A program made the translations under genes and the position numbers. This document shows positions 1 to 8,829 of a DNA stretch of 64,000 nt, piece by piece. The notes beneath the pieces are model-generated. The model was not told the origin of the DNA. It worked only from the letters and a program-made list of their open reading frames with translations, and did no database searches. The stretch is from positions 54,619-118,618 of the forward strand of contig DATJNQ010000008.1 in NCBI GenBank assembly GCA_035507895.1, given 5' to 3'. How positions within the stretch are numbered: position 1 is the stretch's first letter; the number at the start of each line of letters is the position of its first letter. This DNA is from Solirubrobacteraceae bacterium (lineage in GTDB: Bacteria; Actinomycetota; Thermoleophilia; Solirubrobacterales; Solirubrobacteraceae).

Positions 1-742
1 GCGTCATCCCGTACGCGGCGAGGCATGCCTCGTTCTCCGCCTGCTGCTCGGAGAGGTGCCCATGCAGAGGCGCGTCGCGCGCCTCCGCCCACGCCGCGAC
101 GGTCCGTGCCTCGTCCGCCGCCACAGCACGGACGCTGTGGATCGCAGCGCCCACGCGCGCGGCGGAGGTCGCCTCGAGCGCCGACGCGCGCGCGGCCCAC
201 TCGTCGGCGTCGCCGTCGCCGAAGCGCTCCTGCGCACCCGCGAGCGGAGTGTCGACGCCCCCGCGCAGGTAGCACGCGTCGATCAGCGTGAGGCGCAACC
301 CGGCTGCCGCGGCGGCGTCGATGATCGCCCGCCCCATCTCGTTCGGGTCTGCGTAGGGGGCACCGCCGGGCGCATGGTGCAGGTAGTGAAACTCGCCGAC
401 GACGGTGACCCCGGCGAGCGCCATCTCCGCGAACGTCGCGCGCGCGAGCGCCCTGTAGCGGTCCGGGTCGATCGTGCCAGCAAGCCGGTACATCTGCTCG
501 CGCCACGTCCAGAACGTGCCCGGGCCGCTCTGTGCCCGGCCGCGAAGGGCGCGCTGGAAGGCGTGCGAGTGCGCGTTCGCGAGGCCCGGGATCGTAAGGC
601 CCGCCAGGCGCCGGGCGCCCGGTGGAGCGACGGGCACCGTCGATACGTCGGCGATGCGCTCGCCGTCGAGCTCGAGCAGCACCCCGCTCTCGGCCCGCTC
701 GCCGCCGAGCCAAGCGTTCTCGCACCAGTAGCGCTCGCTCAC
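1..742 (-). CDS. hutF: Formimidoylglutamate deiminase (partial, runs off the left edge)
   Basis: Not in the ORF track. Manual translation from GTG 742 gives [14 protein letters not shown]...IPGLANAHSHAFQRALRG...TFWTWREQMY...EMALAGVTVVGEFHYLHH, an amidohydrolase HxH motif with HutF-type segments. The GTGA overlaps the def stop. Confidence 0.9.
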   Translation of the reverse strand, partial: MSERYWCENAWLGGERAESGVLLELDGERIADVSTVPVAPPGARRLAGLTIPGLANAHSHAFQRALRGRAQSGPGTFWTWREQMYRLAGTIDPDRYRALARATFAEMALAGVTVVGEFHYLHHAPGGAPYADPNEMGRAIIDAAAAAGLRLTLIDACYLRGGVDTPLAGAQERFGDGDADEWAARASALEATSAARVGAAIHSVRAVAADEARTVAAWAEARDAPLHGHLSEQQAENEACLAAYGMT

Positions 743-1310
743 GAGCCGTACCGCGCGACGATCGCGCGAGCTTGCGCTTCGAATGCGGCGCGGTGGAAGC
801 GGTCGAACTGCTCCCATGTCATGAACGTCCGCGGGTCGGCGACGCGGTCGAGGAAGAGGACACCGTCGAGGTGGTCGATCTCGTGCTGGAACGTGCCCGC
901 CGTCAGGCCACGCCGCACCTCCTCGTGGGCTTCGCCGTCGCGGTCGAGGTAGCTGACGCGGACCTCGGCGTGGCGGCGCAGCACGCCGCGCAGCCCGGGG
1001 ACCGACAGGCAGCCCTCGTTGACCTCGAACGTCTCCTCGCTCGTCGCCTCGATCGTCGGGTTCACCATCACCGTGAGCTCGATGTCGGGCTTGTACGGGT
1101 AGCGCGGGTTCCCGTGCACCTCGACGACGGCGATTCGCCGCGCGTCCCCGACCTGGCTTGCCGCGAGGCCGGCACCGGCGGCGTCGCGCATCGTCCCGAT
1201 GAGCTCGTCGATGAAGAGCTGGGTGCCGGCTTGGCCGAGCTCCTCGCGCGAGACCTCGCGCGCCGGCTCGCGCAGCGCCGGGTGCCCGGCCGTCACGATC
1301 TGGAGCGCGC

Positions 1311-1314
<4 letters not shown>
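739..1314 (-). CDS. def: Peptide deformylase-family metalloenzyme inside the hut operon
   Basis: All three PDF motifs are present: [13 protein letters not shown] and QHEIDH. Start GTG 1314 overlaps the hutU stop (GTGA). Confidence 0.9.
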
Positions 1315-2968
<1,654 letters not shown>

Positions 2969-2972
<4 letters not shown>

Positions 2973-4525
2973 GCGAGCGGCCCCACGGCGTCCTCGACGG
3001 ATGCGAGGACCGCGCCGTCGAGGAGCAGCTGCTCGGCGGCGGCGATGTCCGGCGCGACGACGCGGTCACCGGCGGGCGGGCGGACCCGGCTGCGCAGCGC
3101 GCCGAGCGCCGCGCCGGTGCCGGCGGCGGGCGCGAGCGGCGAACGCAGGTCGATGGCGGCCCCGGCGACGAGCAGCTCGATGGCGAGGATCTGCCGCAAC
3201 GCCCCGACGGTCCGGCGGAGCTTGCGCGCGGCGCCCCACCCCATCGACACGTGGTCCTCCTGCATCGCACTCGTCGGCAGCGAGCCGACGCTCGCCGGCG
3301 TGGCGCGCCGACGGTTCTCGGCGACGAGCGCGGCCTGCGTGTACTGGGCGATCATGAGCCCCGAGTCGACGCCCGGCTCGCGCGCGAGAAACGGCGGCAG
3401 CCCGTGCGAGCGCGCGGGGTCCAGCAGACGGTCGGTGCGCCGCTCGGCGATCGCGCCTAGCTCGGCCGCCGCGAGCGCGAGGTAGTCGAGGACGAACGCT
3501 AACGGCGCGCCGTGGAAGTTCCCGCACGACTCGACGCGGCCGTCGGGCAGCACCATCGGGTTGTCGATCGCCGCCGCGAGCTCGCGCTCGGCGACGGCGC
3601 GCGCGTGCGCATGCGCGTCGCGCGCGGCACCGTTCACCTGCGGCGCGCAGCGCAGCGAGTAGGCGTCCTGGACACGCGGGTCGCCGTGGCGGTGGCTCGC
3701 GACGATCGCCGAGCCGTCGAGCAGCCGGCGCATGTTCGCGGCGCTGTCGGCCTGGCCGTGCTGCGGCCGGAGCGCGATGAGGTCCGCGGCGAATGCCCGG
3801 TCGGTGCCGAGCAGCGCCTCGACGGACATCGAGGCGGTCACGTCGGCGACGGCGAGGAGGGCTTCGAGGTCCGCCAGCGCGAGAACGAGCATGCCGAGCA
3901 TGCCGTCGGTGCCGTTGACGAGCGCGAGACCCTCCTTGGCCGTAAGCCGCAGCGGCGTTATGCCAGCGGCGGCGAGCGCGTCCGACGCAGCGACGATCTC
4001 GCCGCCGTCGCCCACGGCGACCTCCCCCTCGCCGATCAGCGCCAGCGCGCAATGCGCGAGCGACGCGAGGTCGCCGCTCGCTCCGACCGAGCCGTGCTCG
4101 GGGACGAGTGGCGTGACCGCGGCGTTGAGCAGCGCCACGATCGTCGCGGCGACCTCTGGGCGCGCACCCGAGCGCCCCATCGCGAGCGTCCGCGCCCGCA
4201 GCAGCATCATCGCCCGCACCACCTCGCGCTCGACGGCGCCGCCCGCGCCCGCGGCGTGCGAGCGCACGAGCGCGAGCTGCAGCTGCTCGCGCTGCGGCGG
4301 GGCGATCGGCACTGTCGCAAGCGACCCGAAGCCGGTGGAGACCCCGTAGACCGGCGCGGACTCCGACGCGAGGTGAGCGACTATGGCGGCGCTCGCGGAC
4401 ATCGCTTCCGTCGCCTCGCGCGAGATCACACAGGTCGCGCCGTCGCGGGCGACGCGCACCACGTCGGCGGCGCCGACCCCATCCGGGCCGATCACGACTG
4501 CGTCTGTGCCGCTATTCCCCGCCAC
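2969..4525 (-). CDS. hutH: Histidine ammonia-lyase
   Basis: [12 protein letters not shown]-forming [27 protein letters not shown] and QEDHVSMG motifs. Start estimated at GTG 4525. Confidence 0.95.
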
Positions 4526-4585: not shown

Positions 4586-4615
4586 TGTGATGAAGTGCGC
4601 GAGCAGGACGTAGTA
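4586..4615 (+). promoter_or_regulatory. Candidate ECF-type promoter (TGTGATGAA...CGTAGTA) directly before ATG 4616, possibly leaderless and autoregulatory
   Basis: Pattern seen by eye upstream of the ECF sigma gene; unverified. Confidence 0.3.
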
Positions 4616-5200
4616 ATGGTGATGCGCCTGCTCAGGCCCGACCCGCAGTCCCGCGAGGCGAGGACACCGCCGCACGGGGGCAGCTCCGGCGCCGACGTCG
4701 GATACGACTTCGACGCGATCTTCCGTTCCTGCGTGCGCGACGTGCACGCTTACGCCTTCGCCCTGCTCAGGGACCGCGCCGCAGCCGAGGACGTGACCGC
4801 GGTCGCGTTCGAGCGGCTCTTTCGCGCGCGAGGCAGGCTCGACGCCGGGCGAGGGTCGCCCCGCGGGCTGCTTTTCACGATCGCGCGCAACGCGGCCCTC
4901 GACGAGCTGCGCAGGCGCGCTCGCCGGCCCGTCGCGGATGCGCCGGCGGCCGAGCGTGCCGACGCACGCTCCCAGGACGAGCTCGAACAGGTTGAGCGGC
5001 GCGATTATGTCGCGGGAGCACTGGCTGCGCTCAGCCCGCGCGAACGGGAGCTCGTGCTGCTGAAGTTCCACGGCCAACTCTCAAACGCCGAGCTCGCGCG
5101 CGCACTCGGCATAAGCGAGACGAACGCGGCAACGCGGCTGCACCGCGCGCTGACGCGTCTGCGCACAGCCTGCGTCGCGGAGCGGGAGCAGGTCGCATGA
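4616..5200 (+). CDS. ECF RNA polymerase sigma factor
   Basis: Region 2 (AEDVTAVAFERL...LLFTIARNAALDELRR) and region 4 (ALAALSPRERELVLLKFHGQLSNAELARALG). Start uncertain (4595/4616/4622). Confidence 0.9.
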   Translation: MVMRLLRPDPQSREARTPPHGGSSGADVGYDFDAIFRSCVRDVHAYAFALLRDRAAAEDVTAVAFERLFRARGRLDAGRGSPRGLLFTIARNAALDELRRRARRPVADAPAAERADARSQDELEQVERRDYVAGALAALSPRERELVLLKFHGQLSNAELARALGISETNAATRLHRALTRLRTACVAEREQVA

Positions 5201-6426
5201 GGGTGATCCCGTTTCCAACGCGGCGCGAAGAGACGGTCGACCCCGCCGTGCTCGCCGAACTCGAGGCGGCGTTCGACGGCGACGGCACCGGCCCGCAGGC
5301 GGAGGCGTGGCGCGAGCTCCGCGCGGACGTCCGCTCGCTTCCCGCGCCCATCGACGCCGCCTTCCAGAGCTCACTCGAGCAGCAGCTGCGCCGTTCGCGG
5401 CAGCGGCCGCGGGGCGGCCGACGGCTCACCCTCGCTCTCCGCGGCGGACGGCTGCGCGGACAGCGGTTGCTCGCCGCCGGGACGGCCGTGGTGCTGCTCG
5501 CGGCGCTCGTGTTCGCCGGCGCCGCGTTGACCTCCGGCGGCGGGCGGAGCGGGACGATTCGCGACTACGGCAAGGAAGCGTCCCCGCTGCAGGCCCATCG
5601 CGCCCAGGGGGAAGAAAGCGACCACGGCCCGGTCGTTCAGGGCCCGGCGGCCACCGGCAGCGGCGAATCGGCCGGCACGGTTGCGGGGCCCGACGCGACC
5701 TTCGGCCCCGCCGAGGAACGGGATTCCGGCGCCGCGCCCGGCGAGAGCGCCAAGCGCCTCCAGCAGCTCGGCGCGACGATCAGCCTCGGCGGCGGCCAAT
5801 CCGGCGTGCAGGCGGTGGCGGATCGCGTCGGCGACGTGGCGGTGTCCGCGGGCGGCTACGTCGTGAGTTCGAAGGTGGAACTGCAGCACGGCGCGGCCGG
5901 TGAAGCTGCGCTCACGCTCAGCGTCCCGAGCGCCAAGCTCGCGAGTACCCTCGCGACACTGCAGCGCCTCGCGCCGGTGCGCGCGGAGACGCAGGAACTG
6001 CAAGACCTCACGGGACACTACGACGCCGTTGCGGCGCGCCTCGCGGCGGCGCGGGCCGAACGCGAAGCACTGCTGCGCGCGCTCGCGGGCGCCGAAAGCG
6101 CCGCGGCCGTGGAAAGCCTTCACCTGCGGATCGCGCGCGCCAACGCGGCAATCGCCGCCGCCGAACGCCAGGAGGCGAAGATCGCCCACACGGCAAGCGA
6201 GGCTCAAATCGAAGTCGAGGTGGTCGGCGAAACGGCGCACGCAGGCGGAGGTCTCACGATCGGGCGTGGATTGCACGACGCCGGCCACGTGCTCACCGTG
6301 CTTGGCGCCGTCCTGCTGATAGCGCTCGCTGTAATAATCCCGCTCGGGCTCCTGATCGCCGCCCTCTGGCTCGCTGCGCGCGTCCTGCGCCGCTATCAGC
6401 GCGAGCGCGCGCTCGGATCCGGCTGA
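5197..6426 (+). CDS. Anti-sigma-like membrane protein with DUF4349-type domain
   Basis: ATGA-coupled to the ECF gene. N-terminal cytoplasmic segment, TM helix, DUF4349-like core (GGYVVSS...LTLSVPSAKL...QDLTGHYD) and a C-terminal TM helix. Confidence 0.7.
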   Translation: MRVIPFPTRREETVDPAVLAELEAAFDGDGTGPQAEAWRELRADVRSLPAPIDAAFQSSLEQQLRRSRQRPRGGRRLTLALRGGRLRGQRLLAAGTAVVLLAALVFAGAALTSGGGRSGTIRDYGKEASPLQAHRAQGEESDHGPVVQGPAATGSGESAGTVAGPDATFGPAEERDSGAAPGESAKRLQQLGATISLGGGQSGVQAVADRVGDVAVSAGGYVVSSKVELQHGAAGEAALTLSVPSAKLASTLATLQRLAPVRAETQELQDLTGHYDAVAARLAAARAEREALLRALAGAESAAAVESLHLRIARANAAIAAAERQEAKIAHTASEAQIEVEVVGETAHAGGGLTIGRGLHDAGHVLTVLGAVLLIALAVIIPLGLLIAALWLAARVLRRYQRERALGSG

Positions 6427-6561
6427 CGCGCGCGATCGTGCCGCGGCGGGGCTCGCCGCTTTCGCCGAGGCTCGCTTGCACCGCGTGCGCCGGCGGGCGT
6501 CCGCGCCGCGCCGGACGTGCGCCGACGGCGTGCTTGCTCCCGGCAGCCCGACCGCGCAGTT

Positions 6562-6589
6562 TCAGCAGACGGGGCACAGCTGCCGATAC
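6562..6589 (+). promoter_or_regulatory. Candidate sigma-28 (FliA/WhiG-type) promoter TCAG-N16-GCCGATAC
   Basis: Close to the sigma-28 -10 consensus GCCGATAA, ending 11 nt before ATG 6601. Confidence 0.55.
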
Positions 6590-6600
6590 GAACGCGAGGC

Positions 6601-8829
6601 ATGTCCGAACCGAATCGACAGACAGCGGGCGCCGATTCCGGCGGCTTCCGCACCGCTGCGCCGCGCCCCGCGATCGCCGACTCGCCTCCCGGGTACCTCG
6701 GCGAGCTCGTCGCGCATCTCCCTGCGGTGCTCTACGTCGCCGAGGAGGGCGACGCGGGGCGCTGGCATTACGTCAGCGCCGGGATCGAGCGGATCCTCGG
6801 CTTCACCGCGCAGGAGTGGCGCGAGGATCCCACCCTCTGGGCGCGGCAGATGCACCCCGACGACCGCGAGCGCATCTACCACCACGAACAGACCACGCCC
6901 GACGTACCCGCCGAATACCGGATGCGCCACCGCGACGGTTCGGTCGTCTGGCTGCGTGACGAAGCCCGCCTGATCCGCGATGTCGCCGGCAACAAGCGCT
7001 GGCATGGCGTGATCCTCGACATCACCGACCGCAAGCTGGCCGAGGCCGAGCTCGAGCGGCGCGTCGACCAGCAGGCCGTGGTCGCCCGCCTCGGCCGCGA
7101 CGCGCTCGAGGGCAAGCACGTCAACGACCTGATGCGAGACGCGCTCGGCGAGGCGACACGCGTGCTCGGCGTCCGCATGGGCGCAGTACTCGAACGTCAG
7201 GCAGACGGCGGCACGCTGGTGCTCGCCGGCGCGATCGGCCTTGGCCCCCACGACGCGGCGGCACAGCGCGCGCCGTCGCGCCCCGCGGCCGAGGGAGCGA
7301 ACGGCCACGGCCGCGCCGCGGGCTCCGCGTTGCCGTACAACCTCGCCGGCGGCGCGATCGGACAGATCGTATGCCGCGGCAGACTCTGGGGCGCGGTCTG
7401 GGTCGGCGATGGCACGAGCCGGGAACTCGCGAGCTCCGACGGGAACTTCGTCCAGTCGATCGCGAACATCATCGCCGACGCCATCCAGCGACGAGCGACC
7501 GAAGAGGAGATCCGCTACCGCGCGCTGCACGACCCGCTCACGGACCTGCCCAATCGCAGCATGCTGCTCGAGTCGATCAGCGGCGCGCTGGAACGCAGGT
7601 CCGACAATGTTGCGCTCGTGATGATGGACATCGACAACTTCAAGCTCGTCAATGACAGCTTCGGCCACGCCGCCGGCGACGAGCTGCTCAAGCAGATCGC
7701 CCCGCGCCTGAAGGAGGTCGTCCGCGAGGGCGACGTGATTGCCCGTCTCGGCGGCGACGAGTTCGTGGTGCTGCTGGAGCACGCCTCGCCGGCGAACTCG
7801 CGGCGGTTCGCCGAACGTGTGCTGTCGGCGTTCGAGGCCCCGTTCCGGCTCGGCACGCACGAGCATCTCGCGAAGGTGAGCCTCGGCGTGGCGCTCGCCG
7901 GGCACGCCGGCCAGAGTACTGCCGCGAGCCTGCTCCAGGACGCGGACGCCGCGCTCTACGTCGCCAAGCGGCGCGGTCGGGCGCATTTCGAGATCTTCGA
8001 TCGCGCGATGCGCGTCGGCGCGATCGACCGCCTCGCGCTGGAGAACGATCTCGGGCGTGCACTGCGCCGCGACGAGCTGCGCCTCGTCTACCAGCCGGTG
8101 GTCTCGCTACACGACCGCTCGATCGTCTCGTTCGAGGCGCTGCTTCGCTGGCAGCACCCGGAGCGCGGGCTCGTCAAGCCAGCCGACTTCGTGCCCGTCG
8201 CCGAGGAGACCGGGCTGATCGAGCCGATCGGGCGGTGGGTACTGCACACCGCGTGCGGGCAGCTCGCCGAATGGCAGGCGCACCTGACGGATGCGGCGCC
8301 GCTCGCGATCTCGGTGAACCTTTCGGTGCGCCAGTTCCTGCAGCGCGACTTCGAGTTGATGGTCGCCGAGGCGCTCGCCGAGACATCGCTCGACCCGTCG
8401 GGCCTGTGCCTCGAGATCACCGAGTCGGTGCTGCTCGACGAGCCGCAGTCCGCCAGCGAGAGGCTTGAGCGCATCGCGCAAACCGGCGTGCGCTTCGCGC
8501 TCGACGACTTCGGCACCGGCTACTCGTCGCTGGCTTACCTCGGCGGCCTGCCGATCAGCGTGCTGAAGGTCGACCGGTCCTTCGTCAGCTCGATCACGAA
8601 CGACGAGCGCTCAAAGGCGATCACGACGGCGATCGTCGGAATGGCCGACGCGCTCGAACTGCAGGTGGTCGCCGAGGGCGTCGAGGACGAGTCGCAGTTG
8701 CGCACGGTCCGGAACCTCGGCTGCGACCTCGCGCAGGGCTACCTTTTCTCCGCGCCGCTCGCCGCCGGCGATGCTGCCCGCCTCCTCGCGCTCGGTCGAC
8801 GGACTGCGGCGCGCGCCCCCGTCGGCTGA
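6601..8829 (+). CDS. PAS-GAF-GGDEF-EAL diguanylate cyclase/phosphodiesterase
   Basis: PAS (MHPDDRER, EYRMRHRDGSVVW), REGD I-site, intact GGDEF, and EAL, DDFGTGYSS and EGVE motifs. Confidence 0.93.
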   Translation: MSEPNRQTAGADSGGFRTAAPRPAIADSPPGYLGELVAHLPAVLYVAEEGDAGRWHYVSAGIERILGFTAQEWREDPTLWARQMHPDDRERIYHHEQTTPDVPAEYRMRHRDGSVVWLRDEARLIRDVAGNKRWHGVILDITDRKLAEAELERRVDQQAVVARLGRDALEGKHVNDLMRDALGEATRVLGVRMGAVLERQADGGTLVLAGAIGLGPHDAAAQRAPSRPAAEGANGHGRAAGSALPYNLAGGAIGQIVCRGRLWGAVWVGDGTSRELASSDGNFVQSIANIIADAIQRRATEEEIRYRALHDPLTDLPNRSMLLESISGALERRSDNVALVMMDIDNFKLVNDSFGHAAGDELLKQIAPRLKEVVREGDVIARLGGDEFVVLLEHASPANSRRFAERVLSAFEAPFRLGTHEHLAKVSLGVALAGHAGQSTAASLLQDADAALYVAKRRGRAHFEIFDRAMRVGAIDRLALENDLGRALRRDELRLVYQPVVSLHDRSIVSFEALLRWQHPERGLVKPADFVPVAEETGLIEPIGRWVLHTACGQLAEWQAHLTDAAPLAISVNLSVRQFLQRDFELMVAEALAETSLDPSGLCLEITESVLLDEPQSASERLERIAQTGVRFALDDFGTGYSSLAYLGGLPISVLKVDRSFVSSITNDERSKAITTAIVGMADALELQVVAEGVEDESQLRTVRNLGCDLAQGYLFSAPLAAGDAARLLALGRRTAARAPVG

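Follow-up and report, generated by a model that had tools for sequence, protein, structure and literature searches.

The window examined here, a 64,000-nucleotide stretch of contig DATJNQ010000008.1 from a Solirubrobacteraceae bacterium, contains a gene of the peptide deformylase (PDF) family, def, embedded in an operon for histidine catabolism (the hut genes). Judged from its sequence and its genomic surroundings, the encoded PDF paralog probably serves this operon as its N-formyl-L-glutamate deformylase. It would be a non-orthologous substitute for HutG, and the M20 amidohydrolases, which occupy the same place in other lineages, would be its alternative. In the five-step pathway, N-formylglutamate is the only product of HutF, and it is to be hydrolysed next. 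To our knowledge, N-formylglutamate deformylases come only from the FGase (HutG) family; for Actinomycetota we know of no enzyme assigned to this step, the M20 candidate having failed a published test. PDFs use a metal-activated water to attack an N-formyl amide, the same bond that is present in N-formylglutamate. A full-text literature search gave no paper that relates a PDF-family protein to hut genes or to formylglutamate, and the displacement is apparently unpublished; the fold and the chemistry are known, and the substrate and the physiological role would be new.

The operon is tightly packed. Four of its genes are reached by the window, all on the minus strand: hutH (2969..4525; histidine ammonia-lyase, 518 amino acids, 628 bits with TIGR01225, supported by the gene call and by tblastn), hutU (1311..2891; urocanate hydratase, 526 amino acids in the gene call of the contig, the longest open reading frame extending to 2972; 915 bits with TIGR01228), def (739..1314; 191 amino acids, GTG start, recognised by translation and family profiles) and the N-terminal 247 codons of hutF (1..742; formimidoylglutamate deiminase, assigned by profile and gene call), which is cut by the window edge. 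Truncated in this way, hutF scores 354 bits over half of its model, and the full-length version (441 amino acids, locus L001) reaches 612 bits with NF006681, for which the cutoff is 362. On the source contig the next gene is hutI (393 amino acids; 333 bits with TIGR01224, above the equivalog cutoff), and the complete order is hutH-hutU-def-hutF-hutI, beyond which lie unrelated genes in convergent orientation. The plus strand reads tcac at 1311..1314 and again at 739..742, that is, GTGA on the minus strand; consequently, the TGA stop of hutU overlaps the GTG start of def, and the TGA stop of def overlaps the GTG start of hutF. An overlap of 4 nucleotides also joins hutF to hutI.

These junctions find support outside the window. 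The GTG start of def is backed by the N-termini of aligned homologs and by an independent gene call on the source contig, and an ENA contig of 380 kb (locus L001) carries the identical def protein. The hutU/def overlap is also called in L001 and in L177-L179; L177 and L178 are further Solirubrobacterales long contigs, with the same 4-nucleotide overlaps, and L179, which repeats L178 in a second assembly, was left uncounted. A Logan contig from a wetland metagenome is identical to the window across 488-889, which includes the def/hutF junction. The window, with a G+C content of 71%, is present in wetland and soil metagenomes, and all of the matching runs are DNA metagenomes. Among named organisms, the nearest relatives belong to the Solirubrobacteraceae (Thermoleophilia, Actinomycetota).

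A preliminary description of this DNA had placed def between hutU and hutF through GTGA junctions and had seen no hutG in the window. The letters at both junctions bear out the first point. As for the second, tblastn of the 64-kb window with canonical HutG and four M20 queries gave no match, and on the source contig no FGase (HutG) or M20 gene was found within 10 kb, as judged by Pfam labels. Left of the window, where the same description had proposed a look for hutI, hutG or an M20 amidohydrolase, there is hutI, but neither a hutG nor an M20 gene.

What kind of protein is encoded by def? Its family membership is clear: PF01327 matches with 151 bits (cutoff 22.8, E 2e-44), TIGR00079 with 119 bits (cutoff 104) and NF001159 with 154 bits (cutoff 125). 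The FGase models PF05013 and TIGR02017 gave no match to it; the Paracoccus HutG taken as positive control scored 360 bits with TIGR02017. The translation contains the three catalytic motifs in complete form, as had been claimed. Motif 1, G47-A-G-L-A-A-S-Q54, lies at 1153..1176 on the minus strand, as do the other segments, and has Ala48 in place of the S1' residue Ile44 of the Escherichia coli enzyme. Motif 2, E100-G-C102-L-S104 (1003..1017), is invariant and provides the metal ligand Cys102. Motif 3, Q143-H-E-I-D-H148, provides the metal ligands His144 and His148 and the catalytic Glu145, and it is contained in the segment A139-G-T-F-Q-H-E-I-D-H148 (871..900), where Gly140 and Thr141 are clade-specific. 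Between the first two motifs is a segment of the CD loop, N69-P-R-Y-P-Y-K-P76 (1087..1110), with the clade-specific Tyr74 and Lys75.

The comparison with E. coli PDF was made with a sequence verified as identical to 1BS4_A, and the alignment gives the replacements Ile44 to Ala48, Ile128 to Gly140, Cys129 to Thr141 and Ile130 to Phe142, so that the differences described earlier around the methionine pocket are real. The claim of an unusual NPRYPYKP insertion survives in part: the segment has no E. coli counterpart, but an enlarged CD loop is also present in the Leptospira enzyme (NERYPGTP) and in many ordinary PDFs (NPRYPD/E), and only the Tyr-Lys pair is specific to the group discussed below.

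With regard to the fold, an AlphaFold (AF2) model built from a 60-sequence alignment has a mean predicted local distance difference test score (pLDDT) of 96.2 and a predicted template-modelling (TM) score of 0.92. The top 50 Foldseek matches of this model are all PDFs, and the best of them is the Leptospira interrogans enzyme (LiPDF) in entry 1SV2, with TM scores of 0.87/0.97 and a root-mean-square deviation of 1.0 A, followed by mitochondrial-type PDF1A enzymes. The closest solved structure by sequence is also 1SV2 (E 3e-34). LiPDF (1SV2, 1SZZ, 1Y6H) and the mitochondrial PDF1A of Arabidopsis and human (1ZXZ, 4JE6, 3G5K) are type 1 PDFs with an enlarged CD loop, and they are 38-40% identical to the window protein; the TM scores are 0.82-0.87 with normalisation to the query and reach 0.97 with normalisation to the LiPDF chain. 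They share with it the three catalytic motifs, the N-x-R-Y-P loop and a similar C-terminal D-R/K-x-x-D/x-x-x-F/L region. They differ from it at five positions: in these true PDFs residue 48 is Val or Ile, residue 74 is Asp, Glu or Gly, residue 75 is Ala or Thr, residue 140 is Arg, Ile or Val, and residue 141 is Val, Ile or Cys.

The same differences define a large group. A search of 1.84 billion representative proteins, with the matches sorted by motif, returned a set of proteins that combine GAG, RYPYKP and A-G-T-x-QHE and that form a single clade apart from ordinary PDFs in a neighbour-joining tree. This clade has thousands of metagenomic members and occurs in Thermoleophilia, Acidimicrobiia, Myxococcota and Bacteroidota. 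When 50 diverse members were compared with 119 ordinary PDFs, position 74 was Tyr in all 50 and in none of the 119 (Asp, Glu, Asn or a gap), and position 75 was Lys in 49 of 50, against about 4% of the ordinary enzymes, where Ala or a gap is the rule; both positions belong to the loop insertion that E. coli lacks. Position 140 (E. coli Ile128) was Gly in 48 members and Cys in the other two, and Gly occurred in 0/119 ordinary PDFs, which have Arg, Val, Thr or Ile. Position 141 (E. coli Cys129) was Thr in 49/50 and, again, in 0/119, Val, Ile or Cys being the ordinary residues. Position 48 was Ala throughout the clade (50/50), but ordinary PDFs may have Val, Ala, Ile or Leu where E. coli has Ile44, and only Y74, K75, G140 and T141 are diagnostic. 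The three catalytic motifs are invariant across the clade, and Gln54, Cys102, His144, Glu145 and His148 are invariant in clade members and ordinary PDFs alike. No clade member was found in a plasmid collection searched with the def protein, where all matches were below 45% identity.

Two deviations from the pattern are worth recording. In two Acidimicrobiia loci (L003:1548-2120 and L004:2632-3204), in which the order is hutU-hutF-def-hutI, the residues before QHE are A-C-T, with Gly140 changed to Cys. A PDF-like protein of 192 amino acids (P0183), 45% identical to the def protein, has degenerate motifs, with ERCPS for EGCLS and neither GxGLAAxQ nor QHExDH, and is presumably catalytically dead.

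The hydrophobic S1' pocket, into which the methionine side chain fits, is made up of the equivalents of Ile44 and Ile128, and hydrophobic contact in this pocket drives the closure of the active site (Fieulaine et al., PMC3101196). Since the catalytic residues are unchanged and the equivalents of Ile44 and Ile128 are replaced, the chemistry appears to be retained and the methionine clamp dismantled. Thr141, Tyr74 and Lys75, along with the space that has been freed, may take up and neutralise the carboxylate groups of an N-formyl amino acid in its free form; for Tyr74 and Lys75 this role is suggested by the known position of the CD loop, a mobile element that gates the pocket of LiPDF.

Where do these genes reside? 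A scan of species-representative genomes with the clade alignment, which missed close Solirubrobacterales genomes, listed at least 11 loci of the clade and 69 of ordinary def genes. Among those listed, seven of the clade loci belong to Actinomycetota (Solirubrobacterales, Acidimicrobiia, Ilumatobacteraceae and Aldehydirespiratoraceae are represented, with others), and every one of the seven lies inside a hut cluster, five with the order hutU-def-hutF-hutI and two with hutU-hutF-def-hutI. With the window and the additional long contigs, ten of ten independent Actinomycetota loci are hut-linked (L001, L003, L004, L007, L009-L012, L177, L178), and they span Thermoleophilia and Acidimicrobiia. By comparison, true PDFs act on fMet-peptides emerging from the ribosome, and among the matches listed none of the 69 ordinary def genes had a hut gene within 10 kb. 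Several metagenomic run-on open reading frames, of the types Urocanase_C+PDF and PDF+Amidohydro_1, repeat the adjacency to hut genes. It had been proposed that a tree of NPRYPYKP-type PDFs should be compared with the occurrence of hutF; the answer is a single clade whose Actinomycetota members are always in hut clusters next to hutF.

The same question can be asked starting from hutF. When metagenomes were scanned with a HutF alignment, 80 loci were obtained whose HutF is 51-68% identical to that of the window, and the gene immediately upstream of hutF was scored. In 16 of the 80 this slot is occupied by a clade PDF and in 45 by an M20 hydrolase of about 400 amino acids, never by both (0 of 80); eight loci have neither, and in 11 the upstream sequence was too short for scoring. 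The M20 gene of the slot belongs to the NCBIfam equivalog NF006770, "allantoate amidohydrolase" (597 bits). The mutual exclusivity of the two gives p = 4e-10 by Fisher's exact test, a value that is not corrected for phylogeny. The HutF tree places the genes linked to a PDF in a basal grade and those linked to an M20 in the crown; given this pattern, which is partly phylogenetic signal, the data point to one or a few displacement events and not to 61 independent ones. No canonical HutG homolog was found in the PDF-type or M20-type hut loci examined, with a HutG from a Paracoccus plasmid hut cluster (L173) as query. Within these 80 hutF loci, it is PDF and M20 that alternate in one slot. In two loci with neither gene (L087, L089), small open reading frames downstream of hutF were considered as alternative candidates and rejected, because they are not conserved.

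How do these hydrolases relate to the known ones? HutG (FGase; PF05013, TIGR02017) of Pseudomonas and Paracoccus catalyses the reaction proposed here for the PDF paralog (EC 3.5.1.68), occupies the same pathway position after HutF and clusters likewise with hutU, hutI, hutH and hutF (L173), but its fold and family are unrelated to those of the window protein. The M20 amidohydrolase of the class Actinomycetes occupies the same slot between hutU and hutF, in lineages whose HutF is 51-62% identical to that of the window, and has yet another fold, that of the M20 dinuclear metallopeptidases. Formiminoglutamase (the arginase-family HutG) and glutamate formiminotransferase are alternative ends of histidine catabolism starting from formiminoglutamate; both routes bypass N-formylglutamate and are irrelevant where hutF is present, as here.

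Independent support, unforeseen in the preliminary description, comes from natural gene fusions. The protein P0189 (659 amino acids) joins an entire PDF of the clade type to an entire HutF (377 bits with NF006681 for the HutF half), and a search with it returned at least 16 clusters of PDF+HutF fusions, 640-736 amino acids long, that carry the clade signature. Their sources include the choanoflagellates Stephanoeca diplocostata and Acanthoeca spectabilis and the chrysophyte Paraphysomonas. In four independent marine assemblies, one of the fusion genes lies among genes of eukaryotic type (EF-hand, ankyrin, Oscp1, Myb).

The eukaryotic PDF-HutF protein mirrors a second type of fusion. The HutF of the oomycetes Phytophthora, Pythium, Lagenidium and Globisporangium (827-861 amino acids; P0291, P0303, P0327, P0340, P0346, P0381, P0385 and P0387, the domains having been checked in P0346) bears a C-terminal M20 domain of the ArgE/DapE type. 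In bacteria, an ArgE-type M20 gene overlaps the start of hutF by 4 nucleotides. In all, three unrelated hydrolases, namely PDF, the allantoate amidohydrolase (AAH)-type M20 and the ArgE-type M20, are coupled or fused specifically to HutF. A separate case is a plasmid of Azospirillum ramasamyi (L091:7980-10557), where an M20 gene labelled argE follows an annotated formimidoylglutamate deiminase, a hutF homolog. The latter is preceded by agmatinase and RidA genes and has no other hut genes with it, and this pair may work on a different guanidino or formimino compound.

From these data the following sequence of events can be proposed. HutH, HutU and HutI would convert histidine to N-formimino-L-glutamate, HutF would deiminate this to N-formyl-L-glutamate, and the PDF paralog, as the fifth enzyme of the pathway, would hydrolyse the formyl amide to give formate and glutamate. 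The catalytic set would be that of any PDF, with the metal on Cys102, His144 and His148, Glu145 as general base, and Gln54. The bulky hydrophobic residues that clamp methionine would have given way to Ala48, Gly140 and Thr141, and the mobile CD loop would have gained Tyr74 and Lys75, the predicted outcome being a roomier, polar and cationic site that would suit a free N-formyl amino acid with its carboxylates. Through the 4-nucleotide stop/start overlaps, def would be expressed together with hutU, hutF and hutI. The recruitment of a PDF for formylglutamate deformylation, put forward in the preliminary description, is thus supported by the clade, the linkage, the exclusivity in the slot and the fusions, with the substrate, like the roles of residues 48, 74, 75, 140 and 141, inferred from sequence.

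Several observations weigh against this assignment, and they lead to three other explanations. The first group concerns clade members outside hut clusters. Seven clade loci are from Myxococcota (L002, L005, L006 and L174-L176 among them), including one in the complete genome of Vulgatibacter incomptus, and no hut gene was found within 8-10 kb of these or of a locus in a Bacteroidota metagenome-assembled genome (L008); no fmt gene was found near them either. These proteins carry the same four signature residues as the hut-linked ones. In three of the seven Myxococcota loci, the PDF gene is accompanied by a gene for an M24B Xaa-Pro-peptidase-like protein, directly upstream in L002 (8583-9950) and L005 (8702-10004) and at a distance of two genes upstream in L176 (5698-7074); in L005 the stop of the M24B gene overlaps the start of the PDF gene. 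This adjacency is a hint that the clade has a second setting, outside hut. The L005 gene was also considered as a methionine aminopeptidase, an identity that would favour a true PDF role, and this was rejected: it reaches 36 bits with the methionine aminopeptidase model, for which the cutoff is 171, and NCBIfam assigns it to the M24B Xaa-Pro peptidase-like proteins. The preliminary description had expected that homologs lacking hut linkage would be absent, and in Myxococcota and Bacteroidota this expectation failed. The existence of such homologs weakens the claim for the clade as a whole and leaves that for its hut-linked members as it was.

Does the clade, then, have a wider task? Either the hut genes of Myxococcota are unclustered, or the clade has a broader role on formyl amino acids or formyl dipeptides. 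In the latter case its members would deformylate N-formyl amino acids or short formyl peptides in general, with N-formylglutamate as the substrate in hut operons and others elsewhere, for instance in Myxococcota beside the M24B dipeptidase-like genes. The identity of the signature residues in non-hut members, the large and stand-alone Myxococcota subclade and the position of the M24B genes all fit this explanation. It is nonetheless unlikely, as the M24B gene is present in only three of the seven loci, Myxococcota genomes may simply keep their hut genes apart, and the fusions and the operons all point to HutF specifically.

The second group of observations would suit an ordinary PDF, housekeeping or spare, that merely resides in the hut operon and still acts on nascent fMet-peptides. 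The def protein passes the cutoffs of the curated "peptide deformylase" equivalogs (TIGR00079 and NF001159), its catalytic motifs are intact, and its closest solved structure, the Leptospira enzyme from which the model deviates by 1.0 A, is a genuine, active PDF. The NPRYP loop and, at times, GAG are found in ordinary PDFs too. No second def was found in the 64-kb window, the extent of sequence covered by this search. What speaks against such a protein is, in the first place, that the linkage to hutF has been kept across two classes through rearranged gene orders, that eukaryotes have fused the PDF to HutF, and that the PDF and the M20 exclude each other from the same slot. A functional PDF has a hydrophobic S1' pocket for methionine, and the def protein has Ala48, Gly140 and Thr141 there; two key residues of this pocket and two of the loop are systematically replaced. 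Nor is the context that of housekeeping, with def beside fmt or translation genes: def is embedded in hutHU-def-FI, no fmt was found within 7-10 kb of it in L001, L177 and L178, and it would be strange for an essential gene to be housed in an operon for histidine catabolism. An ordinary PDF is for these reasons quite improbable. By comparison, hutF, the sole source of the proposed substrate, accompanies the clade gene in all ten Actinomycetota loci and in the 16 metagenome loci, and is tied to it by overlaps and fusions.

The third group concerns the slot itself. The M20 enzyme of the slot had been predicted as the alternative formylglutamate deformylase, and no deformylase activity was detected for the protein of Streptomyces avermitilis (PMC3223725, Table 3). 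With this negative result (Gerdes et al.), the function of the slot is itself putative; the assay is a single table entry for which conditions are not given (PMC3223725). In addition, five loci (L095, L102, L103, L166, L168) have hutU abutting hutF, at 9-89 nucleotides, with no PDF, M20 or FGase on the sequence examined. In these loci the formylglutamate step is unaccounted for locally. That the slot, whether filled by PDF or M20, serves some other hut reaction, for example the clearing of N-formylisoglutamine arising from the spontaneous breakdown of imidazolone-propionate, with the true deformylase elsewhere, would agree with the negative assay and with those hutU-hutF-hutI loci that have neither enzyme, but it is very improbable. 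HutF, with N-formylglutamate as its sole product, is the specific partner to which three unrelated hydrolases are coupled or fused; these clusters have no conserved gene that could serve as another candidate; and the assay is reported without conditions. The oomycete HutF-M20 fusion, for its part, supports M20 enzymes as formylglutamate deformylases despite the Streptomyces result, and it argues that the M20 idea deserves a re-test.

N-formylglutamate deformylation by the PDF paralog remains the preferred reading for the hut-linked proteins. How far can it be extended? With less assurance, but still on the favourable side of the balance, the whole clade defined by RYP-YK-P and A-G/C-T-x-QHE may stand outside protein maturation, as a third, structurally unrelated solution to N-formylglutamate hydrolysis that would include the members from Thermoleophilia, Acidimicrobiia, Myxococcota and Bacteroidota, where it would supply the last enzyme still missing from HutF-type histidine catabolism, and that would have been transferred to, or fixed in, bacterivorous eukaryotes, the choanoflagellates and chrysophytes, as a bifunctional PDF-HutF protein.

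If the assignment is correct, it has consequences in several areas. For the biochemistry of Actinomycetota, a PDF-fold enzyme would fill a hole in the histidine catabolic pathway. The PDF scaffold is commonly regarded as having a single function and as a target for antibiotics, and this would be a rare case in which it acts on a small metabolite. Protein engineers would have at their disposal four swappable specificity residues with which to test how a peptide-processing enzyme is retuned. All clade members are labelled "peptide deformylase" in the source databases, as they would be by the curated models, and this automatic label would have to be corrected. The parallel PDF-HutF and HutF-M20 fusions would make an unusually clean Rosetta-stone pair and would revive the M20 hypothesis. 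Finally, the histidine catabolism of soil and wetland Actinomycetota, as well as that of heterotrophic protists, could be correctly reconstructed from metagenomes.

A few genes around the operon complete the picture. Divergent from hutH is a gene for a sigma factor of the extracytoplasmic function (ECF) type (4595-5200, plus strand), which overlaps by 4 nucleotides the gene for a DUF4349 membrane protein (5197-6426, plus strand), likely its anti-sigma partner, so that the two form a pair at 4595-6426. The DUF4349 gene is followed by one for a PAS-GGDEF-EAL protein (6517-8829, plus strand; Pfam labels). On the other side, downstream of the hut operon and just left of the window, is a pair of genes for non-homologous end joining (L001:14648-17946), encoding LigD, with its ligase and primase-polymerase, and Ku.

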